Shown: piece by piece, positions 7,357 through 58,800 of the stretch
Layout: every line of letters starts with the position of its first letter
Numbering within the stretch: position 1 is the stretch's first letter
Assembly: GCA_030390025.1 (NCBI GenBank)
Contig: CM059431.1
Coordinates: forward strand, 150,166,001 to 150,230,000
DNA from: Squalus acanthias
Lineage: Eukaryota
Direction: 5' to 3'
Length of the DNA stretch: 64,000 nt
The notes under the pieces: model-generated
What the model saw: the letters and a program-made list of their open reading frames with translations, nothing else
Told to the model about the DNA's origin: nothing
Databases searched by the model: none
Program-made: the position numbers and the translations under genes

Positions 7357-8070
7357 GGCCCGAAAATTACGCACTGTTTATTCTCGCGTATTAGGTCCCG
7401 AATTGCCGGTTTCCTGCATGCACTGCGCATGCGCGGGAAACCGGCACTTCGTGTATTGCAAAGGGGGCGGTTCCTAAGTGCAGTGCACTTAGTTTTTTTT
7501 TCAGGTTTGAACGCCCAGGTAAGTGGTGAAGATTTTATACATAATGAAAGCAGGCCTAGGACTCCCTTTTAACAAAGTAAGTAGTTAATTAAGTGTTATT
7601 TTAAAAAGTTTTCAACAGGTTTATCTTTTATGGAGACTTTAAAGAAAGGTAAGTTTAATTTTATAAATTTTGAAAAGATTTAAAATTTTTTCAAAAATTA
7701 AATTTTTTGTTTGAAGTGGTTAATTTATTTAACTATACTTATTTTATTAATGTGATGGCTTTTTAAAAAAAAATAATTGAGGTTTTGCTGTTCTTTTGTG
7801 GGTTTGTAGTATTCATAGTTTTGATAGCCCTTGCTGTCAAAACTATGAATAAAAGATGGTGTGCTGCCATTGGCTCTAACTGAATCACGTGATCCCAGAG
7901 CTCGCATGAACTCATTGCGCCTCTGGGTACGCAAGCACTGCACGATTGCAGCAGGGAGAGGCTCTGAAACTAAAGTTCATGTGGGCCCCAAACAAAAAGG
8001 TAGGCGCAGAGTGAGATATCGCGGGGAATCCTTACCCCTGCGGGAATCATCGATGTTTAATTTCTGGGCC
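7357..8070 (+). mobile_element. non-autonomous DNA transposon (MITE, PIF/Harbinger-like), copy 1
   Basis: Ends GGCCCGAAAATTA / TAATTTCTGGGCC; flanks AAT/ATT; homologous throughout to 45490-46232. Confidence 0.75.
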
Positions 8071-8129
8071 ATTAGGAGTATGTTTGTGTGTGTGTGCTTG
8101 GGCGATAGAGCAGAGCATTGTCTCCAATC

Positions 8130-23116: not shown

Positions 23117-25930
23117 TGATATAATTGGGATTACGGAGACATGGCTCCAGGGTGACCAAGGCTGGGAATTCAACATCCAGGTGTATTCAATATTCAGGAA
23201 GGACAGGCAAAAAGGAAAAGGAGGCGGGGTAGCTTTACTGGTTAAAGAGGAGATTAACACAATGGTAAGGAACGATATTAGCTCTGGCGATGTGGAATCT
23301 GTATGGGTAGAGCTGATAAATGCCAATGGGCAGGAAACGTTAGTGGGAGTTGGACACAGAACGCCAAACAGTAATGCTGTGGTTGGGGATAGCATTAAAC
23401 GGGAAATTAGAGACGCGTGCAATAACGGCACAGCAGTTATCATGGCTGACTTCAATCTACATATAGATTGGGCTAATCAAATTAGTAACAATACTGTGGA
23501 GGAGGAATTCCTAGAGTGTATACGGGATGGTTTACTGGACCAATATGTCGAGGAACCAACCAGAGATCCGGCCATCTTAGACTGGGTATTATGTAATGAG
23601 AAAGGATTAATTAGCAATCTTGTTGTAATAGGCCCTTAGGGAGGAGCAATCATAATATGATAGAATTCTTCATTTAGATGGAGAATGAAGTAGTTGACTC
23701 AGAGACAAGGGTCCTGCATTTAAATAAAATAAACTACGGTGGTATGAGGCGCGAGTTGGCTAGGATGGATTGGGCAACGTTACTTAAAGGGTTGACGGTG
23801 GATAGGAAATGGCAAACATTTAAAGATCGCATGTATGAACTACAGAATTTGTTCATCCCTGTTTGTCATAAAAATAAAACAAGAATGGTGACTCAAGAGT
23901 GGCTAACAAGGGAAATTATGAATAGCATAAGATCCAAGGAGAGACAATATAAATTGGCCAGTAAAAGCAGCAAATCTGAGGATTGGGAGCAGTTTAGGAT
24001 TCAGCAAAGGAGGACAAAGGGCTTAATTAAGAGGGGGAAAATAGAGTATGAGAAAAAGCTTGCATGGAACATAAAACCTGACTGGAAATGCTTCTATAGA
24101 TATGTGAGGAGAAAAAGATTGATGAATTCAAGCATAGGTCCCTTGCAGTCAGAATCTGGTGAATTTATAATGGGGAACAAAGAAATGGCAGAGCATTTAA
24201 ATACATACTTTGGTTCTGTCTTCTCAAAGGAGGACACAAATAACCTCCCAGAGATGTCGGGGAACATATGGTCTAATGAGAGGGAGGAACTGAATGAAAT
24301 CAGTAGTTTTAGGGAATTGGTATTCAGGAAATTAATGGGATTGAAGGCCGATAAATACCCAAGGCCTGATAATGTAAATCCTAGGGTACTTAAGTAAGTG
24401 GCCCTAGAAATAGTAGATGCATTGCACGTCATCTTCCATAACTCTATCGAATCTGGAACAGTTCCCATGGATTGGAGGGCTGCTAATGCAAACGCCCTAT
24501 TTAAAAAAGATGGTAGAGAGAGAACGGGGAATTGTAGTCCGGTAAGCATGCCATCGGTAGTGGGAAAAATGCTGGAGTCCATTATAAAAGATGCAATAGC
24601 AGAGCACTTGGAAAACAGTGACATGATCGGTCAAAGTCAACATGGATTTACAACAGATAAATCATGCTTGGCTAATCTACTGGAATTTTTTGAGGATGTA
24701 ACTGGTAGAATAGATAAGGGAGAACCAGTGGATGTGGTGTATTTGGACTTTCAGAAAGCTTTCGATAAGCTCCCGCATAAGAGATAAGCGTGCAAAGTTA
24801 AAGCACATGGGATTGGGGGTAACGTTCTGACTTGGATAGAAAAATCTTTGGCAGACAGGAAGCAAAGAGTTGGAATAAACTGGTATTTTTCCGAGTGGCA
24901 GGCAGCGACTAGTGGCGTACCGCAGGGATCGGTGCTCGGACCCCAGTTATTCACAATATATATTAATAATCTGGACGAGGGAACTAGATGTAATATCTCC
25001 AAGTCTGCAGATTACTTAAAGCTGGGTGGGCATGTGTGCTGTGAGGAGGATGCAGAGAAATTCCAGTATGATTTAGAAAAGTTGCGTGATTGGGCAGATG
25101 CATGGCAGATGCAGTATAATGTGGATAAATGCGAGGTTATCCACTTTGGTGTCAAAAACAGGAAGGCAGATTATTATCTGAACGGCAATAGATTGGGAAA
25201 AGGGGAAGTGCAACGAGACCTGGGAGTCCTTGTGTACCAGTCGTTGAAGGTAAGCATGCAGGTGCAGCAGGCGGTTAAGAAGGCAAATGGTATGTTGGCC
25301 TTCATAGCGAGAGGATTCGAGCACAGGAGCAAGGATGTCTTGCTGCTATTGTACAGGGCCTTGGTCAAACCACACCATGAGTATTGTGTGCAGTATTGGT
25401 CGCCTTATCTGAGGAAGGATGTTCTTGCCATGGAGGGAGTGCAGCGAAGATTCAAAAGGTTGATACGTGGGAAGGCAGGAATGATGTATGAAGAGAGATT
25501 GGGTCGATTGGGCTTGTATTCGCAAGAGTTTAGAAGAATGAGAGGGGATCTCAGTGAAACTTATAAAATTCTAACAGGACTAGACAGACTAGATGCAGGA
25601 AGGATGTTCCCGATGGCGGGGGTGTCCAGAACCAGGGGTCACAGTCTAAAGATAAGGGGTAAGCCATTTAGGACTGAGATGAGGAGTAATTTCTTCACTC
25701 AGAGAGTGGTGAACCTGTGGAATTCTCTAACGCAGAAGACAGTTGAGTACAATTCATTAAATATATTCAGAAGGTGTTAGATATATTTCTTAAGGCTAAG
25801 GGTATCAAGGGATATGGGGAGAAAGCAGGGGCAGGGTACTGAACTTGGATGATCAGCCATGATCGCATTGAATGGCAGAGCAGGCTCGAGGGGCCGAATG
25901 GCTCCTATCTTCCATGTTTCTATGTTTCTA
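23117..25930 (+). mobile_element. 5'-truncated CR1 ORF2 inserted in the satellite
   Basis: DIIGITETWL through RT to a (ATGTTTCT)-type tail; in-frame stops; looks like the same subfamily as 16779-20782. Confidence 0.95.
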
Positions 25931-25934
25931 AATG

Positions 25935-28900
25935 AAAAGGGGACCAATAGAATGATTCCTTCTTTAAAAGGGTCTCTGATAGTGACACTCCCTCTTTAAA
26001 AGGATTCCTGAGTGTGAGTATCTTTAAAAGGGATCCCTGTTGGTGACTCACTCATTAAAAGGGCTCCCTGATAGAAAGATACCCTCTTTAAAAGTGATCG
26101 CTGATGGTAAGTCTCTCTTTAAGTGTGCTCCATTGTAGAAAGAATCCCTCTTTAAAAGGGCTGCCTGATGGTGAGGCTCACTCTTTAAAAGGGATCCCAG
26201 AAGGTAAGACTCACTCTTTAAAAAGGGTCCGTGATGCGGAATCGCCCTCTTTAAAAGGGGTCCCCGATTGTGAGGCTCGCTCTTTAAAAGTTGTCCCTGG
26301 TGGAGAGACTCTCTCTTTAAAAGGGGTAGCTGATAGAAAGACTCTATTTTAAAAGGGGTACCTTTTGGGGAGACTCTCTCTTTAAAAGGGATCCCTGATG
26401 ATGAGACTCCCGCTTTAAAATGGACCCCTGATGGTGATACACCCTTTTTAAAAGGGGTCCCTGATGGTGAGACTATTTCTTTAATAGCGGTCCCTGATAC
26501 TGAATCTCCCTCTTTAAAATGGGTCCCTGTTGGTGAAACTCCCTCATTAAAAGTGGTCCCTGATGGTGAGACTTTCTGTTTAAAATGAGTCCCTGATGGT
26601 GAGACTCCCTCATTAATAGGAGTCCCTGATGCTGAAATACCCTCTTTAAACGGGGTCCCTGATGGTGAGCCTATTTAAAGGGGTTCCCTAATGGGGATAC
26701 TCTCTCTTTAAAAGGGGTCCCTGACTGAAAGACTCTCTCTTTAAAAGCGGTCCCTGATGGTAAGATGCCCTATTTTAAAGGGGTCCCTGATAGTGAGACT
26801 CACTCATTAAAAGTGGTCCCTGATGGTGAGACTCCCTCTTTAAAAGTTGTCCCTGTTGGTAAGATTCCCTATTTAAAAGGGGCCCCTGATGGGGCGACAC
26901 CCTTTTTAAAAGCGGTCCATGATTATGAGACTCTCTCTTTAAATGGGGTCCCTGATGGAGTGGCGATCTCTTTAAAAGCAGGCCCTGATGCTGTAACTCC
27001 ATCTGTAAAACGGATCCCTAATGATGAGACTCTCTCTTTAAAAGGGTTCCCTGATTATGAGGCTCCGTTTTTTAAAAGGGGTCCCTGACGTGTATTCTCC
27101 CTCTTTAAATGGGTCCCTGATTGAGACACTCCCTCTTTAAAAGGGGTCCCTGATGGTGAGATTCTCTCTTTAAAAGGGGTCCCTGATGGTGAGACTCCTT
27201 CTCAAATGGGTCCCCGATGGTGAGATTCTCTCTTTACAAGTGGTCCCTGATGGTGAGATTCTCTCTTTACAAGTGGTCCCTGATGGTGAGATTCTCCCTT
27301 TAAAAGTGGTCCCTGATGGTGAGACTCTCTCTTCCGTAGGAGTCGCTGATGCTGAAACAGCCTCTTTAAACGGGGTTCCTGATGATGAGCCTCTTTAAAA
27401 GGGGTCCCAAATGGGGAGATTCTCTTGTTAAAAGGGGTCCGTGATAGAAAGTATCCCTCTTTAAAGTGTGTCCCTGATGCTGAAACAGCCTTTTTAAAAG
27501 GGTTCCCTTTTGGTGAGCCCCGATAAAAGTTCTCCCTATTGGGGAGACTCTCTCTTTAAAAGGGGTCGCTGATGGAAAGACTCTCTCTTTAAAAGTCGAC
27601 CCTGAGAGTGAGACTCCTTCTTTAAAAGGGGTCCCTGATGGTGAGACACCCTCTTTAAAAGCGGATCCTGATGGTGAGAGTCTCTCTTTAAAAGTGGTCC
27701 CTGGTGGAGAGACACTCACTTTAAAAGGGGTGCCTGATGGTTATTATCCCTCTTTAAAAGTGGCCACTGATGGTGATACTCTCTCTTTAAAAGGGGTCCC
27801 GGATGCTGAAATACCCTCTTTAAAATGGATTCCTGATGGTGAGATCCCCTCTTTAAAAGGGGTCCTTGATGGCGAGTTCCTCTCTTTAAAAGGGGTTCCT
27901 GATGGTGAGACTCTCTCTTTAAAAGGTGTCCCTGATGGTGAGACTCCCTCTTTAAAAGGGGTCCATGATGGTGAGACTCCCTCTTTTAAAGGGGCCACCG
28001 ACTGTGAGACTCTCGTTAAATGGGGTCCCTGATGGGGAGACTCCCACTTTAAAAGGGGACCCTGATGGTGAGAAACCATCTTTAAAAGGGTACCCAAACG
28101 GTGAGACTCTCGTTAAAATGGGTCCCTGATGGGTATAATCCCTCTTTAAATGTTGTCCCTGAATGTGAGACTCTCTCTTTAAAAGGTGTCCCTGATGGTG
28201 AGACACCCGTTTTAAAATGGTCCCTGATGGTGAGACTCTCTTTTTAAAACCGGTCTCTGATGCTGAAACTCCCTCTTTTAAAGGGGTCCCTGGTGGAGAT
28301 ATTCTCTCATTAACAGTGGTCCCTGACCGGGATACTCACTCTTTAAAAGGGACCCCTGATGGTGAGATTCTCTCTTTAAAAGGGGTCCCTGATGCTGAAA
28401 CACCCTCTTTAAAATGGAACCCTGATGGTGAGACTTCCTCTTCAAAAGGAATCCCTGATGGGGAATAACCCTCTTTAAAAGGTGTTCCTAATAGAGACAC
28501 ACCTTCTTGAAAAGGGCACCCTGATGGTGAGACATTCTCTTTAAAAGGTGTCCCTAATCGGAAGATTATCTTTAAAAGGGGTCCTTGATAGAAAGATTCT
28601 CTCTTTAAAATTGGAGCCCAAAGTGAGTCTCACTCTTTAAAAGGGCCCCCTGATAGAAAGACCACCTCTTTAAAAGGGATCCCTGATGGTGAGACACACT
28701 CTTTAAAAGGGGTCCCTGAGTGTGAGACTCTCTCTTTAAAAGTGACCCGTGATGTTGAGACTCACTCATTAAAAGGGCTCCCTGACAGAAATATCCCGTC
28801 TTTAAAAGGGTTCCTGATGGTGAGTCTCTCTTTAAATGGTGTCCCTGATGGAAAGATTCTCTTTAAAAGCGGTCCCTGATAAAAAGACTCCCACTTTAAA

Positions 28901-31900
28901 AAGGGACCTTGATAGAAAAACTCTCTCTTTAAAATGTTCTCTGATGGTGAGACTCTCTCTTTAAAAGGAATCCCTGATGGGGAAACAGCCTCTTTAAAAG
29001 GTGTTCCTCATAGAGACATACCCTCTTGAAAAGGGCACCCCGATGGTGAGACACTCTCTTTAAAAGGTATCCCTAATCGGAAGATTCTCTTTAAAAGATC
29101 TCCCTGATGGAAAGACTCAATCTTTAAAGGGGGTCCAGGATAGAAAGACTCTCTCTTTAAAATGGGTGCGCCAGGGTGAGTCTCACTCTTTAAAAGGGCT
29201 CCCTGATAGAAAGACCACCTGTTTAAAAGGGTCTCTGATGGTGAGACTCCCTCTTTAAAAGGACTCCCTGAGTGCAAGACTCTCTCTTTAAAAATGACCC
29301 GTGATGGTGAGACTCCCTCTTTAAAAGTGGTCCCTGACCGGGATACTCACTCTATAAAAGGGACCCCTGATGGTGAGATTCTCTCTTTAAAAGGACTCCC
29401 TGAGTGTAAGACTCTCTCTTTAAAAATGACCCGTGATGGTGAGACTCCCTCTTTAAAAGTGGTCCCTGATGGTGAGACTCCCTCTTTAAAAGTGTCCCTG
29501 GTGGAGAGTCTCTCTGATTAAAAGGTGTACCTGATAGAAAGACTCTATCTTTAAATTGTTTCCCCGAGGGAGAGACTCCCTCTTTAAAAGGTATCCCTGT
29601 TGGTGAGACTCCGTCTTTAAAAGCGGTCGCTGATGGTGAGACTCCCTCTTTAAAACCGGGTCCCTTATGATGAGACTGTCTCTTTAAAAGCGATCCCTGA
29701 TGCTAAGACTCATTCTTTAAAAAGGATCCCTGATGGTGAGACTCCCTCTTTAAAAGGAATCCCTGATGGTGAGACTCTCTCTTTAAAAGGGATCTCTGAT
29801 AGAAAGACTCCCTCTTTAAAAAGAGTCCCTGATGCTGAAACAACCGTTTTAAAAGGGGTCCCTGATGGTTAGCCTCTTTAAAAGGGGTCCCTGATGGGGA
29901 GATTCCCTCTTAAAAAATGGGCCCCTGTTGGTCAGATTCTCTCTTTAAAAGGTGTTTCTGATGGTGAGACACCCTCTTTAAAATTGGTCCCTCATGGCGA
30001 GTCACTCTTTAAAAGGTGTCCCTGATGGAGAGCCTCTCTTAAAAAGCGGTCCCTGATGCTGAATCACCCTCTTTAAAAGGGGTCGCTGATGGTGAGACTC
30101 CCTCTTTAAAAGTGATACTGATGGTGAGACTCTCTCTTTAAAATCGGTGCCTGATGCTAAAAGACCCCCTTTAAAAGGGGTCCCTGATGGTGAACCCCTT
30201 TAAAAGGTGTCCCAAATGGGAGACTCTCTCTTTGAAATGGATCCCTGAGAGAAAGTCTCCCCCTTTAAAAAGTGTCCCTGATGCTGAAACACTCTCTTTA
30301 AAAGGGTTTCCTGATGATGAGCCTCTTTAACAGGGGTCCCTAATGGGGAGACATTCTCTTTAAAAGGTGTCCCTGATAGAAAGACTCTCCCGTTAAAATG
30401 TGTCCACGAGTGTGAGACTCCCTCCTTAAAAGAATTCCCTGATAGAAAGACTCTCTCTTTAAAAGTGGTCCCTAATGGTGAAACTCCCTCTTTAAAAGGG
30501 GTCCCTGATGTTAAGATCCCCTGTTTAAAAGGTGTCCCTGATGTTGAGACACCCTCTTTAAAAGCGGTCCCTGATGGTGAGACTATCTCTTTAAAAGCGG
30601 TCCCTGATTCTGTAACTCCCTCTGAAAAAGGGATCACTGACAGTGAGGCTCCCTCTTTAAAAGTGGTCCCTGATAGAGAGACTCTCTCATTAAAAGGGGT
30701 ACCTGATGGGTATACTCCCTCTTTAAAACGGGCCCCTCATGGAGATAGTCCCTCTTTAAATGTGTCCCTGATGGTGAGACACTCTCTTTAAAAAGGGTCC
30801 TTGATGATGAGATGCCTTCTTTACATGTGGTCCCTTATGGTGAGACACCCTCTTTAAAAGGGGACACTGACTGATGTATGAAAACTACTAGGCACTTGGT
30901 CTAAGCGTTAAACAAAGCTTTAATCAACTGTTTTTCAACATGGAGGTCTAGTTGCATCCTTTACTGGTTCCTGTAAAGGAATGTCCTAAGCAAGCTGGGC
31001 CCATGCCCTAGTAATTACACTCTCCCTGGACAGCGCCACCAGAAGGCCGGCCAGTATTATTTCATACATGAATGACAAGATTCATGTCACAGACGGTGAG
31101 ACGCTCGTTGAAATGGTTCCCTGAAGGTGAGACTCCCTCTTTAATTGGAGACGCTGATGCTGAAACACCCTCTTTAAAAGGCGTCACTGATGGAGACACT
31201 CCCTCTTTAAAAGGGGTCCCTGATGGTGAGACTCTCTCTTTAAATGGTGTCCCTGATAGAAAGATTCTCTTTAAAAGGGGTCCCTGATAAAAAAGACTCC
31301 TACTATAAAAAGGGAACTTGATAGAAAAACTGTCTCTTTAAAATACTCTCTGATGGTGAGACTCTTTCTTTAAAAGTGTACACTGATGGAGAAACTCTAT
31401 TTAAAAAGTGTCCCTGATGCTGAAACACCCTCCTTAAAAGGGGTCCCTGATGATGTGACTCCCTCTTTAAAAGGGGTCCCTGGTGGGGAGAATATCTCAT
31501 AAAATGGTGTCCCTGATAGAAAGACTCTCTCTTTATAATGGGTCCCCGAGGATGAGACTACATCTTTAAAATTGGTCCCTGATAGAAAACTCTCTTTAAA
31601 AGGTGTTCCTGATAGTAAGCCTCCCTCTTTAAAAGGGTCGCTGATGGTGAGACTCCTTCTTTAAAATGGGTCCCTGATGGTGAGACTCCCTCTTTAAAAA
31701 TGCTCCCTTATGGTGAGACACAATCTTTAAAATGGATCCCTGATGGTGAGACAACCTCTTTAATTGGAATCCCTGATGCTGAAACACCTTCTTTAAAAGG
31801 GGTCCCTGATGGTGAGCCGCTTTAAAAGGCTTCCCTCATGGGGAGATTCCCTCTTTAAAAAGTATCCCTGATGCTGAAACACACTTTTTAAAAGGGTTCC

Positions 31901-32520
31901 CTAATTGGGAGAAACTCTCTTTAAAAGGGGTCCCGGATAGAAAGAATCTCTCTTTCAAAGACGTCCCTGATGGTAAGGTTCCCTCTTTACAAGGGTCCCT
32001 GATGGTGAGACTCACTCTTCAATAGGTGTGCCTGATGGTGAGACTCCCTCCTTAAAAGCGTTCCCTGATGGTGAGACTCACTCTTTAAAAGGGCGGCTCC
32101 CTGATGGAGAAACTATCTCTTTAAAAGCGTTCCCTGATGCTGAAACTCCCTCTGTAAAAGGGATCCGTGATGGTGAGACTCCGTCTTTAAAAGGGATCCC
32201 CGATGGTGAGACTCCCTCTTTAAAAGTGGTCCCTGGTGGAGAGACTCTCTCACGAAAAGTGCTCCCTGATGGGTATACTCCCTCTTTAAAAGGGGTCCTT
32301 GATGGCCAGTCTCTCTCTTTAAAAGGTCCCTGATGGTGTGATTCCCTCTTTAAAAGGGGTCCCTGATGGTGACAATCCCTGTTTAAATGGGATCCCTAAT
32401 GGTGAGACTCTCTCTTTAAAATGAGTCCCTGATGCTGAAACATTCTCTTTAAAAGGGGTTCCTGATGGTGAGTCTCCCTCTTTAAATGGGGTCCCTGAGG
32501 GAGAGACTATCTCTTTAAAA
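25935..32520 (+). repeat. 33-bp satellite, right block
   Basis: same unit as 20785-23116; interrupted at 30872-31091. Confidence 0.95.
30872..31091 (-). mobile_element. putative solo LTR (220 bp)
   Basis: unique sequence inside the satellite; minus strand TGT..TCA termini; ATTAAA near its 3' end; GAC on both flanks. Confidence 0.55.
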
Positions 32521-44089: not shown

Positions 44090-45285
44090 TGTAGGCTTCG
44101 CAAAATCCCCCAGAAACTCGAACAGAGCCCTAAAGGGAGTGAGTTTTGGACTTTTCATACAAACTTCAGATGATGGGGCCTAAGTGAAGTGATTTGATGT
44201 AAAAACCTATAGATCATGGAAGAAAAACCTGAGGAAAATGATTTTTTAAAAATTCTGATTGTTGGGAGAGACATTTTTTTCACAGACACAAGCTGCGAGG
44301 GGCTGGGCCGGTCAGTGAACAGATCAAGCTGCCTGGGAATTGTTTGAGTCAAAGCAAAACTCACAAACACATTCAAATTTGGATCCCCAGGGGCAAACAA
44401 GATGCTGGAAATCTAAAAACGATTCAATGACAATATAACTTCGATCACACAGTTTCATAGCCATTATCCCATCGAAAAAAACAATCAACCAGGTTTCCTC
44501 AGAACAGATTTAAAAGCCCGCCAACAGAAGGACAATAGGGTGGAGATTTGGCGCGTAAGTAAGGCTGTGTTTTAATGGGCCAAACGATTAACACTAAGCA
44601 AAAACCATCGGAACTGGCAAGCCCGCCAAAAACTAGACAATTGGACTAAGCAAGGTTTATTTACAATCAAAAAGGAATTCGTTTTAGTAAGGGGTTTTTG
44701 GGCGCAAAAAAGAAACAGTATAATTTGAGATTCTGTGCCATAATTTCTCTCTTTTTCGGACTGAATGACGACGCGGACACAGCTCTCTCCCTGCTCCAGC
44801 AAAAATTACCTCAAGCTACGAGGAAGAAGGCCAGAAGACAAGCACACAAGAAGATACCAGAGTGACTGCCTCAGTGACCATCAGACACCTCGCAGCAACA
44901 AGGGCATAACGGAGTCCTTTTAAACAAAAGACTCTAATATCCTGTCAAGGATTCGTTGGTGAGCATTATCCCTGATCTCCTGAAACCTAAAACCTAGCCA
45001 GATAGTGGGATCTTTGGGAGGGATAAGTTTTTGTTTGATATATTGTCATTTCCCTCGCTTGTACCGTGTGTTCCCCGAATCTGTGTTGAAGTAATAAGTG
45101 TGTTTCAAGTGTGTTACCTTTTTCCTTTAATAAAGTAAAATTCTTTCATCAGAACCTGTTTACTGCAATTTTGTTCACAATCCCTAAATAAGCCCAAAGT
45201 CAAGGAACCGGAGGGGTGTTGGAGCGATTCGAACCGCTCACTGTGTCAGAAAGCGAAGGCTGACCCCATCAATATACCCCTTACA
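44090..45285 (+). repeat. 5' LTR (1196 bp)
   Basis: direct repeat of 51859-53029; TG..CA ends; AATAAA ~45129; possible TATA-like ATTTAAAA ~44507. Confidence 0.95.
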
Positions 45286-45289
45286 TAAA

Positions 45290-45307
45290 TGGCGACCGTG
45301 GCAGGAG
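45290..45307 (+). promoter_or_regulatory. primer-binding site, tRNA-Arg(TCG)-like
   Basis: TGGCGACCGTGGCAGGA starts 4 nt after the LTR; complement of the recalled tRNA-Arg 3' end TCCTGCCGCGGTCG-CCA with 1 mismatch. Confidence 0.75.
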
Positions 45308-45489
45308 TTTGGCGAAAGGGTTGTGAAGCAGTAAATGCTGGTTTTGAGGAGAGAACAAAAATGGAAGAGAGGATGTCATCCTATGTATATAAAAAAGTAA
45401 ATATCACCAAGAAATGGGTCCTCAGGCTGTTGCATGCTGAACGTCCCATGGACGCTGCAGCTGCATGGACTGAGAGCAAGGAATACAAT

Positions 45490-46232
45490 GGGCCGAAAAT
45501 TGATCCCGGGAAGCGAGAGTACGCACTGTGTACTCTCGCGTATTCCCACTCCAATTGCCGGTGTTCTGCATGCCCTGCGCATGCGCTGAAAACCGGCAAT
45601 TGCTCTTCTGAAAAGGGGGCGGGTCCTGGGTGCATCGCGTGCGCGCTACAGGCTGCGCGCACGCTGTGCACTTCATGCTTTGGACGCGCAGGTAAGTAGG
45701 GAAGATTTTGGAAATGTAAAAAGGAGGAGTAAGAGTCGCTTTTAAGAAGGTAAGTAGTGAATTAAGTATTTTTTTGAATTTTTTTTTACAGGTATATCTT
45801 TTTTAGAGACTTTAAAGACAGGTAAGTTTATTTTTATAACTTTTTAAAAGATTTTAAATTTTTTCAAAAATTTAACTTTTTATTTAAAATGGTTAATTTA
45901 ATTAACTATACTTATTTTATTAATGTGATGTTTTTTTTTTAAATTTAATTGAGGTTTAGCTGTTATTTTGGGGGAGTGTAAGATTCATAGATTTCACAGC
46001 AGGTCTGTGAAACTTATGAATGGAAGATGGTGTGTTGCCATTGGCTCTAACTGAGTCACGTGATCCCACAGCGCGCACGAATTCACTACGCCGCTGGGAT
46101 AAGCAAGCCCAGCACAGCTGATGTCTGGAACATCAAGTTCGTGCGAGCTGCATCTGAAAAAGCACAAGCGAGGTGAGACTTCGCGGGGAAGGCTTACCCC
46201 CGCGGGAACAGAGCGAGATCAATTTCTGGGCC
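45490..46232 (+). mobile_element. Harbinger-like MITE, copy 2, inserted in gag
   Basis: imperfect 19-bp TIR GGGCCGAAAATTGATCCCG / CGAGATCAATTTCTGGGCC; 3-bp TSD AAT (45487-45489, 46233-46235). Confidence 0.85.
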
Positions 46233-47839
46233 AATAAGTCTGTGGATAAAGCCATATGGTTGGTCTGCTCCCAGAAACAAATGCAGCTTATGGGAAGTGT
46301 ATTCAGGCTCTCACAGAAGAGCTAAAGAAAGAAAGCCAACTGTCCCGTGCCAGAGCTGTAGCAGGAGATAGATTGTTAGCAGAGCTCGGCCCAAAAGATC
46401 AGGAACAGTCACAGATGCTGGAGGAACACCGTGCCAGTAAGGGATACCTCCAGTATCAGTCCACCGAGGCCAAAAGTAGTGAACTGGCATTGCGGGAACA
46501 GAACACCCGCCTTGCCAAGCAATTAAGGGAACTCACAATGAAGTTAAACGATGTTCAGGCAGCCTATAGAATAGCCAGTAAAAGGGAGTTTGAGGTAGGG
46601 GACCACGGCCCCTCTCAGAAGCAGATTGAGAGTCTGAACCTTGCTCTGATCAAGACAAAAGGCATGCTGTGCCTGATAAGCCCGGGTGCGGCCCAGGCAG
46701 ACCTGGTAGAGCAGGGGGAGACTGTTCGACCACCACCTGTGGCGCCAAGGAGAAGCTTGTTTAGGCAGCAGAAGGTGCAGACAATCTGTGAGGCTGACAG
46801 GGAGTGCACACCAGCACCTGTGGCGCCGAGTTTTGACTCGGTCTGGCAGCAGGGAGAGGGGGGCGAACCGATGCAGGAGAAGTCGGAGCCAGGGCCAATG
46901 TTCCCAGCACGACAGCAAAAATTCGGCCCGCACGCCGGTTGTGGAGGTCAGCGACCCCTTGAAAGTCAATTCTTGGCTCCCCACGGTACACAAGAGCTTA
47001 GGGCTATGGTAAGCCACCAGAGTAAACTTACCCAAAAGGAAGACCCCGCAGTTCACTTCATGGAGGTGGAACAATCAGCAGCCATTAACGATTGTGACGA
47101 TGCCGAAATGGCAAAATTGCTCCTGTTCTCATTAGATGGGAAATTGTACCAGTCACTCTCTAATGAGAGCAAGAGAGGACAGAACGGGTGTGCTGCCCTC
47201 AGGGAGGAAGTTTTAGAGGCCATGGGAATGAATGAGGGAAGTCCTTTCTCCCGGGTGGAGAAAAACAGTGCAGCTCGCAGGGGTGATCCCACAGGCTTTC
47301 GCAGACAGGCTGTGGCCGGTGTACATGGTTGCCTGTAATGGGGCTCTCGACAGGGCTAACCTGAACAGGGACGAGCTGGCCCACTGGCTCCGTAACCTAG
47401 TGGCAAACAGCTTGCCACGAGTCAAAGCCATGGCTCAGCTTTGGTTTGACCCAAGAGATCCCCGGGTCACCGAGGAGGCAGTGGTCTGGCAACTGACCCT
47501 AGCCTACCGGAACGGTAGGGGAGCTGAAGACACCCCACTGAAAGGGATGGTGTATGAGATAAAGCCCAGTCAGGATAAGAAGGAGTGGGACCTGGAAGGT
47601 GGTAAACCTTCAGACATGAAGCGTAACTGCTTCGGGTGCGGGAAGAGTGGGCACTGGAGAAAGGACTGTAGAAATCCCTGGAAGGATATGCTGACAAAAA
47701 ATTCCCCAGCTTTTGCCCCAAAAGTAGAGGCACTGACCTCTTCCCCCACACTGGACACAATAGTAGCGGCCATCAGAGTCCTGTTTGGTGGCCCAGGGAA
47801 GGTAGCTACTGGTGCATTAATCCCATCAGACCCCCCCTA

Positions 47840-48290
47840 ATGCAGACCTATGACTGGAACCAGCGCAGCCTGTCTACCTGTGTTCCCCTGGGATACGATG
47901 TGAAGAAGGGGGTGGAGAAAGTGCAGGGGAGATGTTTGGTGGACACCGGAGCCGCCAGCACGGTGGTCCATTCGGCAGACCTGACCAATTCACTCAGGTC
48001 TAGCGGGGTCCCGTACAGTTTAATGGGAATCACAGGGAACAAGCAGGCTGGGGCCATATCCAAACCTTTGGACATAGATTTAGGATCCCTCCATACCACG
48101 TGGGAGGGTAACCAAAAGGCCGACAAGTTGGCCAAGCAGGGGGCCAGTGAAGAAGAGTTATGGGATCCCTATAATGCAGGTCAGGTAGCTGCAATCCGGG
48201 ACAAGGGAGGCACACAGGGGAGAGCTTAGCCCCCGGACTTAAAGCAGGTCCAAGCCCAGCATCCCGTCTTTAAGTCCGGCCTGGTAGAGA
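47840..48290 (+). pseudogene. pol: pol remnant: aspartic protease fused directly to RNase H C-terminus
   Basis: CLVDTGAASTVV (retropepsin DTG), then ..HTTW|EGNQKADKLAKQGA (GN..AD..A RNase H motif) and DLKQVQAQHP; no YxDD, HHCC or DD35E seen. Confidence 0.82.
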
Positions 48291-49263
48291 GAGTGAGGGG
48301 AGTCCCTCGGAGGTCCTTTCAGGGCAGAGGACCAGATTTTTAAACAGAATCACTGGCAAGCAGCCAGTAACCTGGGGAGCCAGCACCAGAAAGATAGGCT
48401 GCTGTTAGAACCCCAGAGAACTCACGAGTGGGAGATTGACCAGTGCAAACTGTTTAAACCTAAAAGGGAACAGCCGGCAAAGGTGGATTGCCCCCAAGTT
48501 AGAAATCCGCAGCCAGCCACAACTGTGGCAGACGCACAAGCTGCAGCGGGAGGGACAGTGTGTTGTCTCACAGGAGAGGTCACTCCACCGATTATGTGGG
48601 GCTCAAGCACACCCCCAGTGGCCAGAGCCCTAAGAAGGTCTCCCCGCACACCACAGCAAAGGCTACTGTGGCAACAGGTGTATCTGTTAAGAGGGTCCCA
48701 CCCAAAGAGGGTTGCAATCCGAAGAAGGGCGCCCAAGAGCAGGGAGCGTTCTAAAGTTGGGGATTCCCAGCCTACAGCCTCCAACAGTGAGGGTTTCACA
48801 GGAGAGGTAGTACTGGAAGGAGAGAGAGAGAAGGGTCCCCCGCCCACAGCCTCAGGCTGGGAGGAGCCCACAGATATGAACGAGGGCGCTGCAAACACAC
48901 CAAAGTGGGTAGTGTGCTGCAGCACAGGACGCAGCTGGGATGTTAAGATACCCCCAGCGGATTTGAGGAAGGCCTTCTGGGTCTGCGGTACAGGCCGCAC
49001 GACACCCAGGTGTACAAGCCATCCAGAGGCCGCATAAGGCAGAGACTAAACAGAATTTAACCTGGCCGCCCGGAGACGGGCGGCAAATGAACATAAATTT
49101 GGGTTTTTAAGTAATTGCAGTTTTGGTGGTTTTGAGTTATCATTAGTTTCGTTGTTTGTAGAGTTTTTTTTAAGTTTAAGGGCTTGATTGATTATCCAGC
49201 CGGAGAACCTTTCTGGGACATGGACATATGTTTTGTGTGTGCCCCTACAGAAAGGACTTCGGG

Positions 49264-51482
49264 ATGACAAGGTTTCTGCTCCTCTTCGCCCTGGTAGGGG
49301 TGAGCATCGGCTACCGAGGTGACGTGGAGGACTCCCACATCTATGGGTGCTCAGGAGTGAGAGCACCAGTCGTCACTGCAGGGGGTGGCGAGCGAGTAGT
49401 GGTGGAGCTCGCCATCTACTTCCACGAGGGGAGGTGGCCAGGGTGGCTGGGGTCCAACTTTACTAAATAATCCACCCAGCCCGGGTTCACGTACGGGGAG
49501 GCCTACCTCCCATGACCCAGAATGCAGGTCGTTGCCACCAGGGTCAGTGTCACCGAGGGGAAGCGTATGTGCCTTACCTGTAAGGGACGAATTCCCCTGA
49601 CTAGGTGGTGGTGGCTCAGGAAGCTGAGCAGGGACGCAGTGTACCATACAGCCGACTGGGAAAGATTAGGGAACGACACCCACCGGACAATCACAGGGAC
49701 CCAAGGAGAAGTTAGTGTTTGTTGGGATAAGTGGTGGGAGTCGGAACAGGGAGTCTATGGTTGTATGTGGGGATCATAGGAAGCCTGCCCCACAGGGGTA
49801 TCCATCATCTTCTCCAGCCAATGGCAAGATGCCGGGGAGGGGATAGGGTGTGATTCTAGCCTGCATGGGTGCGTGGTGCCACACATTCAGGTCCCAGTTA
49901 ATGCCACTGAACTCGTGGCACACACCCGAAAGCCCCTACCCACGACCCAGGTACCGAAAACCCTGGAAGAAAAGTGCCCTACCACCACCAAGGGACCAGG
50001 GAATGGGTTAGTCCTAGCACCAAACGAAAAGGTACTATACCAGGGGGAACACTATGCAGTAGCTTCAGTAATATTAAACCTTACCGAGGTATACTTACCT
50101 GTGTGGTGTCCTAAGGAAACGGAGCAGCTGTACCAGGCCCTGCTGAAGGAAATGTTTAGGAAATTTTACGAATTTGATTTTGCCAATATAGACAAAGTAG
50201 AGCTATACAGAATACACCCTAAGAACCCTATGGGCACGGGTAGACAAAGAAGGGGAGCCTGGAATGATGTCTTCACTGCCTATAGTACAGGGTCCTCTGT
50301 AATAAATAGCCTGAATGACATGGAATTACAGACACAGATAAATGGTTGAAAAACCCAGTTCAGTAAGATCCTGAAGGATGGGAACACAGTGGTAGGCTCA
50401 GAGCTACATGAGGACCAAGCTTTGAAGGATCATTTAAAGGAAATTATTGCAGAATTGGAAAGGCATGCCAAAACAGTAAATTCACTCATACGGGAGGATA
50501 GGAATGCATCGGATCAGGCTGCACAGAATGAGGTGTGTGTGCTGTACGGGGCATGGTTACTGGGCGAGGACCGTCGCAACCTGGAGGATTTAAAGCAAGG
50601 TTTAGTCCCCTCCTGGATCAGCAACAAGCACCTTACAGCCCTCAACCCGTTTAGTAATTCGCTGAGTCCATGCCAATTTCGTCTAGCCTCTGAAGCCTGC
50701 CCTGTCCCAATAGATTGTGGGCGTTCAAATCACACTATCATGGGGATAGTAGTGAGAATGCCAGTCATGAGTGGGACAGCCCGACCCGTACCGGTATACA
50801 GGGCGGAGAACAGTGGAGTAATTCAAGGGGGTGCACACATCCGTTTTACAGCGGTCCCACCTTATGTCATAAAGTGGGAGGAAGGCATGACAGGTACTGA
50901 CCTCTCCGGGTGCCGGAGCCGGGGTTCACACATAATACTGTGTCCCCAGCACTTGACCGCCTATTCCAAACCACAGTGCGGGTTTAAAGCTGCTGGCGCA
51001 CGACCTATCAATTGCACAATGGAGGTGATGGCACACGGCCATGTTTCCCCACAGGTAGCATATATATGGGGTGGGACATATTGTGTCATCACAGGTGCGT
51101 CCCACTACCAGCATGGACACTTCTGGTGTCCGGTAAGTGACAGCAGTTTCTGCTTTAAACCCGAGGCAGAAGTTCAAGTTGCCCAGGAACGGATTGTCCC
51201 CATTCCTGAAACCTTCACTCTTCACCTCACTGTTACAGAAAACATTACAAACCTGCAAAAGTATTTGACATCCTACTTAAAGCTGCAGAGATTTCAAAAA
51301 AACATTTCTACATCCTGGAACAGAAAACATTTGAAATAGGGGCAGAGATTTTGGATATAGTAGTTCAAAACTGGTGGGATATTTTCGAGAATATAGCGGT
51401 GCCGTCCTGGATGAGGATGGCTTCCCATCTTTTGGTGGTCTGCCAGCTCGGGATAGTTCTCTACCTGCTGTGTACAAAGTGA
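49264..51482 (+). pseudogene. env: env-like glycoprotein: signal peptide, Ig-like domain, furin site, F-type fusion ectodomain, TM
   Basis: acceptor CCCCTACAG at 49250, ATG 49264 MTRFLLLFALVGVSIG; four ORF pieces in one frame (stops 49468, 49777, 50347); RQRR|GAWNDVF; frameshift ~51270-51340, then QNWWDIF..HLLVVCQLGIVLYLLC. Confidence 0.85.
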
Positions 51483-51846
51483 AGGGGTAGGGACGAGGAG
51501 CTCCGCTGCAGACACGAAGGTACTTGGGAAGTGCATCAAAATAAAGGCTATGGCCGGGGATGGAACAAACCTTGAATTTTGTCTTTTAATAAAAAAAATT
51601 GTATGTGTGTTGTTTCATTTTTATGATGTGTATGATGTGTTTTTTCTAAGCTGTGCAGGGGTGTCGGACCCTCTCCGTGCTTGGATGTGAAATAAAGATT
51701 GATTCTTACCTGTATGTACCTGAAACCCCACTTTCAAAAGGGGAATTAATGTTTGGGTTTTTAGTTTATGTAATACAGGGGAAGGTTGCTTTTCGGGGAT
51801 CGGTAATTTTGCTCACCTGTTAATGATACTAATTCAGTGTTAGTAT

Positions 51847-51858
51847 GAAAGTGGGGGA
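51847..51858 (+). promoter_or_regulatory. polypurine tract
   Basis: GAAAGTGGGGGA immediately before the 3' LTR. Confidence 0.85.
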
Positions 51859-53029
51859 TGTAGGCTTCGCAAAATTCCCCAGAAATTCGAACAGATCCCT
51901 AAAGGGAGTGATTTTTGGACTTTTCATACAAACTTGGGACGATGGGGCCTAAGTAAAGTGATTTGATGTAAAAACCTATAGATCAGGGAAGAAAAAACTG
52001 AGGAAACTGATTTTTTTTTTAATCTTATTGTTGGGAGAGACATGTTTTTCACAGGCACAAGCTGCGAGGGGCGTGGCCGGTCAGTGAACAGATCAAGCTG
52101 TCTGGGAATTGTTTGAGACAAAGCAAAACTCACAAACGCATTCAAATATGGATCCCCAGGGGAAACAAGCTGCTGGAAATCTAAAAACGATTCAATGACA
52201 ATATAACTTCGATCACACAGTTTCATAGCCATTATCCCATCAAAAAAACAATCAACCAGGTTTCCACAGAACAGATTTAACAGCCCGCCAACAGAAGGAC
52301 AATAGGGTGGAGAGTTGACGCGTAGATAAGGCTGTGTTTTTAAATCGGAAAACGATTAACACTAAGCAAAAACCATCGGAACTGGCAAGACCGACAAAAA
52401 CTAAACAATTGGACTAAGCAAGGTTCATTTACAATCAAAAAGGAATTCGTTTTAGTAACGGGTTTTTGGGCGCGAAAAAGAAACAGTATAATTTGAGAGC
52501 CTGTGCCATAATTTCTCTCTTTTTCGGACTGACTGACGACGCGGATACGGCTCTGTCCCTGCTCCAGCAAAACTTACCACAAGTCACGAGGAAGAAGGCC
52601 ATAAAACCAGCACGCAAGAATAAACCAGAGCGACTGTCTCAGTGACCATCAGACACCTGGCACATAAACAAAAGACTCTAATATCCTGTCAAGGATTCGT
52701 TGGTGAACATTATCCCTGACCTCCTGAAACCAAAAACCTTGCCAGATAGTGGGATCTTTGGGAGGGATAAGGTTTTGTTTGATATATTGTCATTTCCCTC
52801 GCTTGTACCGTGTGTTACCCGAATCTGCGTTTAAGTAATAAGTGTGTTTCAAGTTCGTTACCTTTTTCCTTTAATAAATTAAAATTCTTTCATCAGAACC
52901 TGTTTACTGCAATTTTGTTCACAACCCCTAAATAAGCCCAAAGTCTAGGAAAAGGAGGGGTGTTGGAGCTATTGGAACCGCTCACTTTGTCAGAAAGTCA
53001 AGGCTGACCCCATCAAGATACCCCTTACA
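51859..53029 (+). repeat. 3' LTR (1171 bp)
   Basis: collinear with the 5' LTR; scattered substitutions and a ~25-bp indel near 52660. Confidence 0.95.
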
Positions 53030-53593: not shown

Positions 53594-54760
53594 AGGCAAC
53601 CTGCATGAGAAAGCAGAAGACATCAAAAGGGTTTAATTTGTAATCTGTGTTAAACCGAGGTGCAGCATCTCAATCGCCTAATGTCGGTGATAATAGAGAA
53701 AGAACCCTAAAGCAGGCTCCTTGGGAAGATTGGGAGTCCCGTATGCAGGAGACCAGGAAGATCCCGCTGAACCAGGTGAGATGGGACACACCCTGACCCC
53801 AAACACTAAATTGGTCACTGAATTCATAGGGTTCAGTTAAAGACTTAATATCAGACTAGGACAAAAATGAATTCGAGAACATTGTAAAAGACTTCAATAC
53901 AAACTTACAAGAAAACTTCAGCAAGTTATTTTAAAGTAACAAATGTCTTATGTTGATAAGTAATATTAACTATTGCTTTGCCAAGTACAAACGCTGATGG
54001 TGATCAACGTAACACTAAAACCTTTGTGACACCAAAAGAAAGACATCCCAACTCACAAACTGATCTCTACCTGTCCGATCCAGCAAAATAACCCAAACGC
54101 TGATGGACTAGAAATAATTGAATCAGGAAATGTATGTGTGTGTTGAAATTATACAGGTTGCGGTAAACTTGAACTTGAATCTGTCAACCAGATTATGTGA
54201 TGGGAGTTATTCACAATTAATAGGCAAAATGGAAGGAGAATGAGTAAATAATGTGCTAGTAAAGAACATAAAATAGGAACCAAGGGCTGAGGAAGATGAG
54301 GAGCAGAAGGAGAATCAGTTTAAATCGAGAAGGAAGCCAGGGATGGCAGAATGGCGATGAATAGGAGCCATGGCAAGGTTAGCGGGACTAAGCAGAATCG
54401 ATATAGAAAGTATGGAGGAACACGACGAGATAATGAAGAGGCATTTAGAAAGATTGTTTGCAAACAATGAGTTTAACCAGAATCAGGACCTTACTGGATT
54501 CCTATGTGACATTTGTGATGAATGTGGTACAGAAGTGTCTTACTGCAATTATTTCGGGCCCTGGGTGTGTCCCATTCCACCTGGTTCAGGGAGTCTTCCT
54601 GGTCTCCCGCATACGGGACTCCCAATATTCCCAAGGAAACGGCTTTAGGGATCTTTTTCTACTACCGCCGAAATAAAGCTTTTGAGACGCCATACATCGG
54701 TTTAGCACTGATTCCAAAACTAACCATTTTGAGGTCTTCTGCTTCATCATGGAGGTCACC
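53594..54760. repeat. ~200-bp diverged inverted repeat (53594-53793 / 54562-54760)
   Basis: TTGGGAGTCCCGTATGCAGGAGACCAGGAAGA versus TCTTCCTGGTCTCCCGCATACGGGACTCCCAA, alignable for ~200 bp. Confidence 0.85.
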
Positions 54761-54769
54761 ATGGAGGCC

Positions 54770-55500
54770 ACTCTGATATACGCCACACACAACATAATAA
54801 ATCTCTGATATACCGCAAACCCCTGAATTTAAGACTTTGATATACCCTACGCCCCACACTGTAACACTGTGATTTACCCGGCATCACTTATTGTAATACT
54901 CTGATATACACCACACCCCTCACTGTAACACTCCGAGAAACACAACACCCCTCACTGTAACACACTGAAATAGACCACACCCCTCACTGTAACATTCGGA
55001 TATACCCTACACCCCTCACTGTAACACTCTGATTTACCCCACATCACTCACTGTAACACTCTGATATACTCCACCTCCATTACTGTAACACACTCTGCTA
55101 TACTCCATACCAATCACTGTAACACTCTTATATAGCCCACACCCCACACTGTAACATACACCGATATACTTCACACACCTCAATGTAATACTCTAATATA
55201 ACCCACACCCTCACTGTATCATTATAATATAGCCCACACCCCACACTGTAACATACACCGATATACTTCACACACCTCAATGTAATACTCTAATATAACC
55301 CACCCTCACTGTATCATTATAATATAGCCCACACCCCTCACTGTAACACTCTGATACATGCCACACTCTGGATTATTATCCCCACACTACTCACTGTAAT
55401 ACTGATATTCCTCACATCCCTCACTGTAGCCCTCTGATACATGCCACACTCTGGAAGGTTTCACCCCACACTGTAATACTGAAATAAGTCGCACCACTCA
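54770..55500 (-). repeat. 32-bp satellite, inverted counterpart of 4740-6770
   Basis: (CTGATATACCCCACACCCCTCACTGTAACACT)n. Confidence 0.92.
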
Positions 55501-56829: not shown

Positions 56830-58800
56830 CAGGGGACTTACCCTGGTTCAACAACGAGTACAGAAGAGCATGTCAGGAGCAGCACCAGGCGTACCTAAAC
56901 ATGAGGTGCCAAACTGGAGAAGCTACAACGCAGGACTACATTCATGCTTAAAAGCGGAAGCAGCAAGCTATAGAGAGAGCGAAGCGATCCCAAAATGAAC
57001 GGATCTGCTCTTCAGACTTCCCACATCCAACTAACGGGAGAAGGAGGCTCAAAGAATATCCCCATCCTCAATGATGGTAGAGCCCAGCACATGAGTGCAA
57101 ATGACATGGCTCAAGCATTCGCAACCAGCTTCAACCAGAACTGCCGAGTGGATGGACCATATCGGCCTACTCACGAGATCCCCACCATCACAGATGCCAA
57201 TCATCAGCCAATTCAATTCACTCCACGTGATATCAAGAAACGGCTAAGTGCACTGGGTACAGCAAAGGCTATGGACCCCGACAACATCCCGGCTATCGTG
57301 CTGAAGACTTGTGCTCCAGAACTAGCCAACGCCACTAGCCAAGCTGTTCCAGTACAGCTACAACACTGACATCTATCCGACAATGTGGAAAACTGCCCAG
57401 GTATGTCCTGTCCACAAAAAGCAGGACAAATCCAACCCGGCCAATTAACGCGCCATCAATCTACTCTCAATCCTCAGCAAAGTGATGGAAGGTGTCGATG
57501 ACAGTGCTATCAAGAGGCACTTACTCACCAATAACCTGCTCACTGATGCCCAGTTTGGGTTCCGCCAAGACTACTCGGCTCCCAACCTCATTACAGACTT
57601 GGTCCAAACATGCACAAAGGAGCAGAACTCCAGAGGTGAGGGGAGAGTGACTGCCCTTGACATCAAGGCAGCATATGACCGAGTGTGGCATCAAGGAGCC
57701 CCAGTAAAACTGAAGTCAATGGGAAAACGCTCCACTGGCTGGATTCCTATCTATCACAAAGGAAGATGATTGTCGTGGTTGAAGGTCAATCATCACAGCC
57801 CCAGGACATCACTGCAGGAGTTCATAAGGGCAGTGTCCTGGGCCCAACCATCTTCAGCTGGTCCATCAATGACCTTGCCTCCAACATACGGTCAGAAATG
57901 GGGATGTTCGCTGGTGAATGCATAGTGTTCTGCGCCATTCACAACTCAACAGATAATGAAGCAGTCCATGCCCGCATACAACAATACCTGCATGACGTTC
58001 AGGCTTGGGCTGATAAGTGGCAGGTAACATTCGCGCCACAGAATGCCAGGCAATGACTATCTCCAACAAGCGAGAGTCTAAACACCTCCCCTTGACATTC
58101 AATGGCATTACCATCGCCGAATCCCCCACTATCAACATCTTGGGTGTCACCATTAACCAGAAACTTAACTGCACTAGCCACATAAATACTGTGGCGCAAG
58201 AGCAGTTCAGAGGCTTGGTATTCTGCGCCGAGTGTCTTACCTTTGACTCTCCAAAGCCTAAACACAATCTACAAGGCACAAGTAAGGAGTGTGATTGTAA
58301 ACTCTTCACTTGCCTGGATGAGTGTAGCTCCAATAACAGTCAAGAAGCTCGACACCATCCAGGACAAAGCAGCCCGCTTGATTGGCATCCCATCAACCAC
58401 ATTAAACATTCACTCCCTCCACCACCGGCGTACCGTGGCTGCAGTTTGTACCATCTACAGGATGCACTTCAGCAACTCGCCAAGGCTTCTTCGGCAGGAC
58501 CTCCTAAACCCGTGACCTCTTCCACCTAGAAGGATAAGGGAAGAAGGCGTATGGGAACACCACGACTCCCAATTTCCCCTCCAAGTCACACAACATCCTG
58601 ACTTAGAAGAATATCGCCGATCCTTAATCGTCGCTGGGGCAAAATCCTGGAACTGCCTACCTAACAGCACTGTGGGAGTACCTTCACCACACGGACTGAA
58701 GCAGTTCAAGAAGGCGGCTCACCCCCACCTTCTCAAGGGCAACTAGGGATGGGCAATAATTGCTGGCATTTCCAGCGACGCCCAGATCCCATACACGAAT
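56830..58800 (+). mobile_element. 5'-truncated LINE (CR1/L2 superclade) inserted just 3' of the GPCR stop
   Basis: KAMDPDNIPAIVLKTCAPELA, QFGFRQ, ALDIKAAYDRVWHQG, GSVLGP, TIYKAQVRS; 3' tail. Confidence 0.9.

Follow-up and report, generated by a model that had tools for sequence, protein, structure and literature searches.

How retroviruses acquired their Env, and how a fusogen of the F type finds its cell when it has no partner attachment protein, are open questions on which a locus of Squalus acanthias bears. The window, that is, the whole stretch of DNA analysed here (64,000 nucleotides), had been described in an earlier note as holding a chimeric envelope, in which an Ig-like domain and a Thr/Pro stalk stand in front of an F-type fusion protein. 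The locus thus raises the question of what this envelope is, whether its two parts belong together, and what the front part would have done.

The env at positions 49264–51482 lies in a provirus of 8.9 kb (44090–53029), whose parts are collected in Table 1. The two LTRs are 93.1% identical over 1169 aligned bases (K2P distance 0.073), with 51 transversions against 30 transitions; this excess of transversions departs from neutral decay and may come from recombination between copies or from assembly error. Only residues 11–89, 779–847, and 1138–1282 of pol are kept, the RT and the integrase core being deleted. Gag begins with a coiled-coil-like stretch, as judged by eye, and the repeat inserted before it matches positions 7368–8074 of the window at 75%. 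The frame between pol and env is conserved at 77–86% in close copies and poorly in farther subfamilies, and is possibly an accessory gene. About 1.65 Mb away on the same contig, an inverted copy (L036) repeats the provirus and its flanks at 98.2% over 10 kb, which would make it either a segmental duplication or an uncollapsed haplotype. The window also holds tandem arrays of 33 bp and 32 bp (about 20800–32000, 4770–6770, and 54760–55450) and, by eye, LINE-like RT fragments near 57000–58050.

Table 1. Parts of the provirus and of its env, in positions of the window.
Feature	Positions	Strand	Basis and remarks
5' LTR (TG...CA)	44090–45285	+	4-bp target-site duplication GAAC directly before
Primer-binding-site-like sequence	45290–45306	+	Directly behind the LTR; 5 other copies have a similar sequence
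Unrelated repeat inside leader/gag start	45485–46243	+	About 760 bases; most copies are without this insert
gag, frameshifted, with CCHC zinc knuckle	46250–47840	+	zf-CCHC, E = 7e-4
pol remnant	47885–48630	+	Protease start fused to RNase H end, then integrase tail
Open frame between pol and env, 246 codons	48297–49037	+	Candidate only
env signal peptide	49264–49311	+	By inspection
Pre-Ig segment of the head, residues 17–84	49312–49515	+	Two stops; pLDDT mostly under 50; dN/dS ~0.2
Ig-like domain (predicted), residues 85–186	49516–49821	+	One stop near the end; dN/dS 0.09–0.10
Thr/Pro-rich linker, ~35 residues	49876–49977	+	Residue composition
F2-like segment ending in furin-type site RQRR	49978–50253	+	Motif and fold model
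F1-like ectodomain (predicted)	50254–51276	+	Putative fusion peptide, long heptad helix, Cys-rich beta domains; one stop
C-terminal heptad, WWDIF, TM segment (51417–51473), early stop	51277–51482	+	Frameshifted
Polypurine tract	51848–51858	+	Sequence directly before the 3' LTR
3' LTR	51859–53029	+	Target-site duplication GAAC directly after

One frame opening at 49264 carries, just as the earlier note had read it, the signal peptide, VSVTEGKRMCLTC, RWWW, EQGVYGC, and a Thr/Pro-rich stretch, followed by RQRR (residues 327–330, positions 50242–50253), GAWNDVFTAYSTG, long helices, and a Cys-rich beta region; WWDIF and a hydrophobic segment (Kyte–Doolittle value of 2.07 for a 19-mer) sit in another frame, at 51210–51482. 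The motifs and the frameshift, near 51277, therefore stand, but four stop codons had been overlooked (49468–70, 49513–15, 49777–79, and 50347–49), two of which bracket the Ig-like segment. Because of the four stops and the frameshift, the window copy makes no protein. The locus is a dead, pol-deleted copy of a high-copy endogenous retrovirus and as such is ordinary; the interest lies in the family. The Thr/Pro-rich stretch is distinct in composition (14 of 39 residues, or 36%, against 12–13% elsewhere), but the word stalk does not suit it, since it is short and joins the head to the F2-like segment instead of lying next to the membrane.

The fusion part was modelled as a whole ectodomain, with the stops read through as X and 44 relatives folded with it, and the confidence of the model is fair over residues of about 237–660. 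All PDB entries listed by Foldseek for the core are F proteins of paramyxoviruses or pneumoviruses, the best being hPIV3 F (E = 6e-10). By VIA, the core aligns with NDV F at Z = 10.7 (333 aligned residues, rmsd 15.8) and with foamy Env at Z = 8.7 (274 aligned, rmsd 5.4), against a Z of about 6 or less for unrelated helical proteins; the rmsd is high (5–16 Å) because the monomer model mixes conformations. Structural matches span residues 245–662, and the layout of F2, basic cleavage site, and F1 is recovered, with a 62-residue helix. Among predicted viral structures, the core matches those of a lispivirus, a fish filovirus glycoprotein, baculovirus F, and walleye epsilonretrovirus Envs, the last from walleye epidermal hyperplasia virus 1 and walleye dermal sarcoma virus. 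By sequence, F was matched neither in Pfam (including PF00523) nor among PDB sequences, and the segment after RQRR is barely hydrophobic (mean hydropathy 0.06), the corresponding segments of relatives being Gly-rich and more hydrophobic. Overall, the F-type fusogen claimed for the C-terminal part is borne out at the level of predicted fold, with paramyxovirus and pneumovirus F as its structural match, and the env core is predicted to be a class I fusion protein of the paramyxovirus F type.

In the same ectodomain model, pLDDT is under 50 over most of residues 17–233 and the head is left unfolded; we therefore folded the head alone. Over 49522–49790, where an Ig fold had been expected, the strands modelled at residues 87–169 follow each other in Ig order (B, C, C', D, E, and F) at pLDDT 60–85, but the mean pLDDT of the head model is only 49 and the G strand is missing; neither the pre-Ig segment nor the part that follows strand F took a defined shape in the model. 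The Ig motifs (B-strand Cys, C-strand Trp, and D/E-x-G-x-Y-x-C) are present and conserved across subfamilies and species. With VIA, all 50 rows listed for the head are antibody, TCR, or other Ig-superfamily chains, judged by title or by chain letter and length, at Z = 6.4–7.6 and rmsd of mostly 2–3 Å over 73–88 residues, and it should be noted that a Z under 8 may reflect only a common arrangement of elements. The ESM Atlas gave 0.93 for the head core, with nine of the ten best family matches in one Ig clan, and 0.85–0.87 for a longer piece.

Searches by sequence point in the same direction. Ig_3 is the recurrent top match of the head in Pfam (E = 0.003 for a sister copy and 0.0012 for a distant lineage), the best scores being 18.5 bits in the family and 19.8 bits in the distant lineage, below the Ig family cut-off of 30 bits. 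The family's own head profile found 0 matches among PDB sequences. When the alignment included distant rows, which were trimmed around the Ig-like motif, 20 of 28 matches were Ig (best E = 0.0035), and a profile of distant-lineage heads alone found Ig-superfamily chains in 24 of 24 matches (best E = 0.02). The UniRef entry of a shark relative is named 'Ig-like domain-containing protein'. The proposal of an Ig-like module is upheld at moderate strength by the model, VIA, the ESM Atlas, and the profiles, but Pfam stays below its cut-off and Foldseek gave no match for the head at E ≤ 0.001, agreeing on Ig only at E ≥ 0.032. On this evidence, we consider it very probable that the head holds an Ig fold.

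A search of the same genome with the F1 part gave 8681 candidates; 122 of these were scored, all 85–96% identical apart from the window itself, and in 13 the env frame runs for 800 codons or more and the match is free of stops. When copies were picked by the F core alone (36 loci, 7 of them duplicates), all 29 distinct ones proved to have the same head in front of it. All 150 scored matches cover the head, and head and core also occur together in skate and sawshark proteins, the closest proteins in the database. Contigs spanning the env occur in three sequencing runs presumed to be RNA, an observation that speaks neither for nor against expression. The envelope is thus chimeric in a deep sense only, and is otherwise the ordinary env of its family, which has thousands of candidate copies.

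Selection was estimated from differences common to pairs of copies, between subfamilies about 60% identical. The resulting dN/dS is 0.09–0.10 for the Ig part, about 0.2 for the pre-Ig segment, 0.25–0.31 for the linker, and 0.07 for F1, of which only a short stretch was sampled, with dS between subfamilies near saturation (1.3–1.7). These values indicate that the head is under purifying selection and about as constrained as the fusion core; a dN/dS of 0.09–0.10 means that the head was made and needed in the replicating virus.

Between lineages the picture is different. A profile search with env listed 50 proteins, 10 of which were looked up, and the relatives listed include Envs of Chiloscyllium, Mustelus, Heterodontus, Pelodytes, Mantella, Xenopus, and Latimeria. 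Their core is alignable throughout, and the region before the core differs strongly. The S. acanthias genome itself holds further env lineages, 33–80% identical to the Chiloscyllium protein, several of which show the pattern VxEG..C..W/F..HxGxxxC. In profile comparison, the head of the window family and the distant heads do not match significantly (probability 0.3 and 3.4), the best score being 6.7 bits, with a shuffled control of the reverse search reaching 5.9. The frog heads are Ig-like by motif only and have no match in Pfam, and two relatives (P0054, of Latimeria, and P0045) have no head. For 12 of 13 related envs, the RT upstream has its best match in the same pol clade (two of them short and weak); the remaining env has no RT upstream. 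Sixteen near-identical proteins of Mantella aurantiaca, most of 677 residues (cluster P0053), are a related env with an Ig-like motif and appear to be a young frog family of the same clade.

The virus itself was placed by pol, which in complete sister copies comprises PR, RVT_1, RT_RNaseH (tether), RNase_H, and integrase. Its closest pols (45–50%) come from frog, Xenopus, and coelacanth and are named 'NYNRIN-like' at NCBI. In three RT trees (121, 49, and 28 rows, the first two being quick trees), they group with the family query at supports of 91, 83, and 87/97, and this group falls on the canonical-retrovirus side, apart from Loki. In the 28-row tree, support is 100/98 for Loki and 100/99 for the canonical side including the query; the RT reference rows are few, and those of Loki were assigned by eye against the RT alignment of PMC7947760. 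AU tests (LG+G4, 28 of 49 rows, 21 left out) rejected a forced union of query and Loki (p-AU = 0.0146). A union with the SnRV clade was weakly rejected (p-AU = 0.04), with a single SnRV row and an unresolved tree base; a union with foamy was not rejected (p-AU = 0.174), the foamy rows being long-branched copies from the same genome only and not joined to the query in the free tree. The integrase tree is weakly resolved and sets Loki next to two clade members at 83/81, and the RNase H tree, quick and weak, has no resolved grouping. We dropped the identification of the element as a lokiretrovirus because its RT lies outside the Loki clade and the union is rejected at the p-AU given above. Tentatively, the family would form a separate shark/frog/coelacanth RT clade on the canonical-retrovirus side. 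The same genome also contains foamy-like proviruses (L037–L045), separate from the Ig-headed family, and gives 49 matches to the spumavirus protease family, with foamy-type RT motifs.

By analogy with known F proteins, the Env of a replicating member would have been led to the ER by its signal peptide, would have formed a trimer, and would have been cut at RQRR by a furin-type protease. Held by the short Thr/Pro linker, the head would have remained part of the F2-like fragment and bound a molecule on the surface of the fish cell; either this binding or endosomal acid would have set off the F1 part, so that it inserted the segment behind the cut and, again as in known F proteins, folded back into a helical hairpin bundle, merging the membranes. 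Paramyxovirus F depends for attachment on another protein, and the proviruses of the family show no evident gene for a second glycoprotein. We therefore read the Ig-like head as the attachment domain that the virus carried on its own F-type fusion protein, with a probability of roughly 0.6. Receptor binding is deduced here from the position of the head and the evolutionary pattern only: the heads differ strongly between lineages over an alignable core, as receptor-binding parts do, which favours an attachment role.

The strong conservation of the head would also fit a structural role, and the head-less relatives (P0054, P0045, and six Loki Envs) suggest that the core can work without a head. 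The best placed of the alternatives, though unlikely, is a structural role, in which an Ig-like head caps or clamps the trimer, keeping it stable before fusion or setting the moment of its trigger, and the F core does the receptor binding. A head constraint equal to that of the fusion core suits such a cap, as does the existence of head-less relatives, in which the core alone may bind cells; pneumovirus F binds cells by itself. However, the interface of a cap should stay like the core, yet no likeness can be detected any more between the heads of related lineages, and a flexible Thr/Pro linker separates head from core.

Compared with attachment, it is distinctly unlikely that the head is a captured host Ig domain serving as an immune decoy or modulator, a mimic of the Fc-receptor, CD, or adhesion type. 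Herpesviruses and poxviruses capture Ig domains for such use, and weak profile matches to FcgammaRII, CRTAM, JAM-A, and IgLON could be taken in this sense, but they spread over many Ig families and not one. No host donor of the head was found, the 50 matches listed at E ≤ 0.001 among 1.84 billion representatives including no Ig receptor, and a recent capture would hardly show the extra cysteines and tryptophans or a pre-Ig segment of 70 residues. The place of the head, its constraint within lineages, and its turnover between them would likewise favour attachment over decoy.

It is improbable that the head is a viral beta-sandwich merely resembling Ig, with the Cys-Trp-Cys pattern and the model due in part to convergence and prediction bias. 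The sub-threshold Pfam scores, the Foldseek values of E ≥ 0.03, the Z below 8, and the low mean pLDDT would all be expected of such a domain; against this, five kinds of test agree on the Ig superfamily, the order and spacing of the motifs are right, and the signal recurs in a distant lineage that was not used to define the motif family. Finally, a junction of head and core peculiar to the window copy, made by a host exon or an assembly error before env, might be suspected from database gene models that join env pieces to host genes (zinc finger, Niban) and from the odd transversion excess of the LTR pair, but is already refuted by the copy data given above, namely the 29 of 29 copies and 150 of 150 matches with a head, the skate and sawshark proteins, and the 13 of 122 copies with long, uninterrupted env frames.

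Among known systems, lokiretroviruses share with the complete copies of the family the order LTR-gag-pol-env and a tether plus RNase H. Both Envs have a signal peptide, a basic cleavage site, a coiled coil, and a TM segment, with a GPxxGxVL-like motif, recognised by eye, opening the core; the relation to PF00523 is that of the Loki Env, and here it is one of fold. The family integrase is 36–43% identical to that of Loki, its closest match after its own clade. In the available text of PMC7947760, 0 of 6 cartilaginous-fish genomes screened were positive for Loki, and some lokiretroviruses carry an smc-like gene. The two differ at the front of Env: in six Loki Envs the core follows directly after the signal peptide, whereas in the family it is preceded by a head and linker of about 220 residues together.

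Foamy viruses have a Gag without a CCHC knuckle and a protease of the A9 family, whereas the family Gag has zf-CCHC and the family protease has no match to PF03539 at E ≤ 1; the family RT is only about 35% identical to the foamy-like elements of the same genome. The two are alike in joining an F-like core and an extra domain in one chain, in the fold match at Z = 8.7, and in a 4-bp target duplication. According to the text available from PMC11468914, the binding domain of foamy Env is inserted within its F-like core (residues 217–543) and has a fold of its own, whereas the extra domain of the family is N-terminal, before the core, and Ig-like. The same text uses 'immunoglobulin' for domain II of the F-like core, which lies inside the core and is separate from the N-terminal head.

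The F proteins of paramyxoviruses and pneumoviruses, the lispivirus protein, baculovirus F, and the F-type Env of errantiviruses, for which four conserved domains are described in the accessible part of 10.1101/2023.10.26.564294, share the predicted core fold and the layout of F2, cut, and F1. In the portions of the literature consulted, no N-terminal Ig head was found in these proteins, and the fusion peptide of the family is far less hydrophobic. SnRV-like ERVs (clade Huo; CmiERV lineage I, in the available part of PMC4422223) share a deep-branching class III-like RT in sharks and amphibians, the family RT being 42.5% identical to that of SnRV. For the shark and frog foamy-like ERVs CmiFLERV and XtrFLERV, only pol is reported in PMC5512871, and they may belong to the same clade.

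The literature search, which covered titles and passages of the sources named here, gave no description of a retroviral Env that begins with an Ig domain. No such head occurs in the available portions of PMC7947760, PMC4422223, PMC9040795, PMC12440569, PMC11468914, PMC5512871, PMC6001957, PMC8227577, PMC12690878, 10.1101/2023.10.26.564294, 10.1101/2021.11.23.469661, and 10.1101/2024.07.05.601823. This agrees with the earlier note, which did not recognise the Ig-headed design as described, but F-like retroviral Envs as such are known from lokiretroviruses and foamy viruses. Tentatively, the Env would work like one of the loki or foamy type, yet the element is not a lokiretrovirus.

Besides the loki Env without a head and the foamy Env with its internally inserted binding domain, an N-terminal Ig-like head, which is under constraint inside a lineage but turns over from one lineage to another, would be a third architecture. 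The pairing of an F-type Env with a pol that groups with those of canonical retroviruses is relevant to the four origin scenarios set out by Wang and Han (PMC7947760). A wider picture, offered tentatively and with the odds somewhat against it, is that sharks, rays, frogs, and coelacanth harbour an undescribed deep-branching retrovirus clade, neither loki nor foamy, whose F-type Env has an N-terminal slot for exchangeable Ig-superfamily receptor-binding heads; together with the Envs of foamy, loki, and, by fold search, the walleye epsilonretroviruses, it would make the F-type fusogen the ancestral retroviral Env, to which binding domains were added at different sites in different lineages.

The copies also differ in what they have lost. 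Among 16 fetched 10-kb loci, a biased sample mostly chosen for long env frames, four have a complete pol, seven share the pol-deletion junction of the window copy, and five belong to a second type without pol, whose LTRs differ and whose gag is only 73% alike although its env is nearly the same. Two pol-less lineages have thus been amplified while keeping gag and env (L021–L036 and window 47885–48630), and several of their copies have LTR pairs 95.5–98.7% identical; they must have borrowed pol from complete copies. Genomic superspreaders usually lose env, not pol. Between the second type (L022, L025, and L030–L032) and the window type, env has a shared dS of about 0.02, with gag 73% and LTRs under 81% alike; since env is nearly the same while gag and LTRs have diverged, env was recently exchanged between the two lineages.
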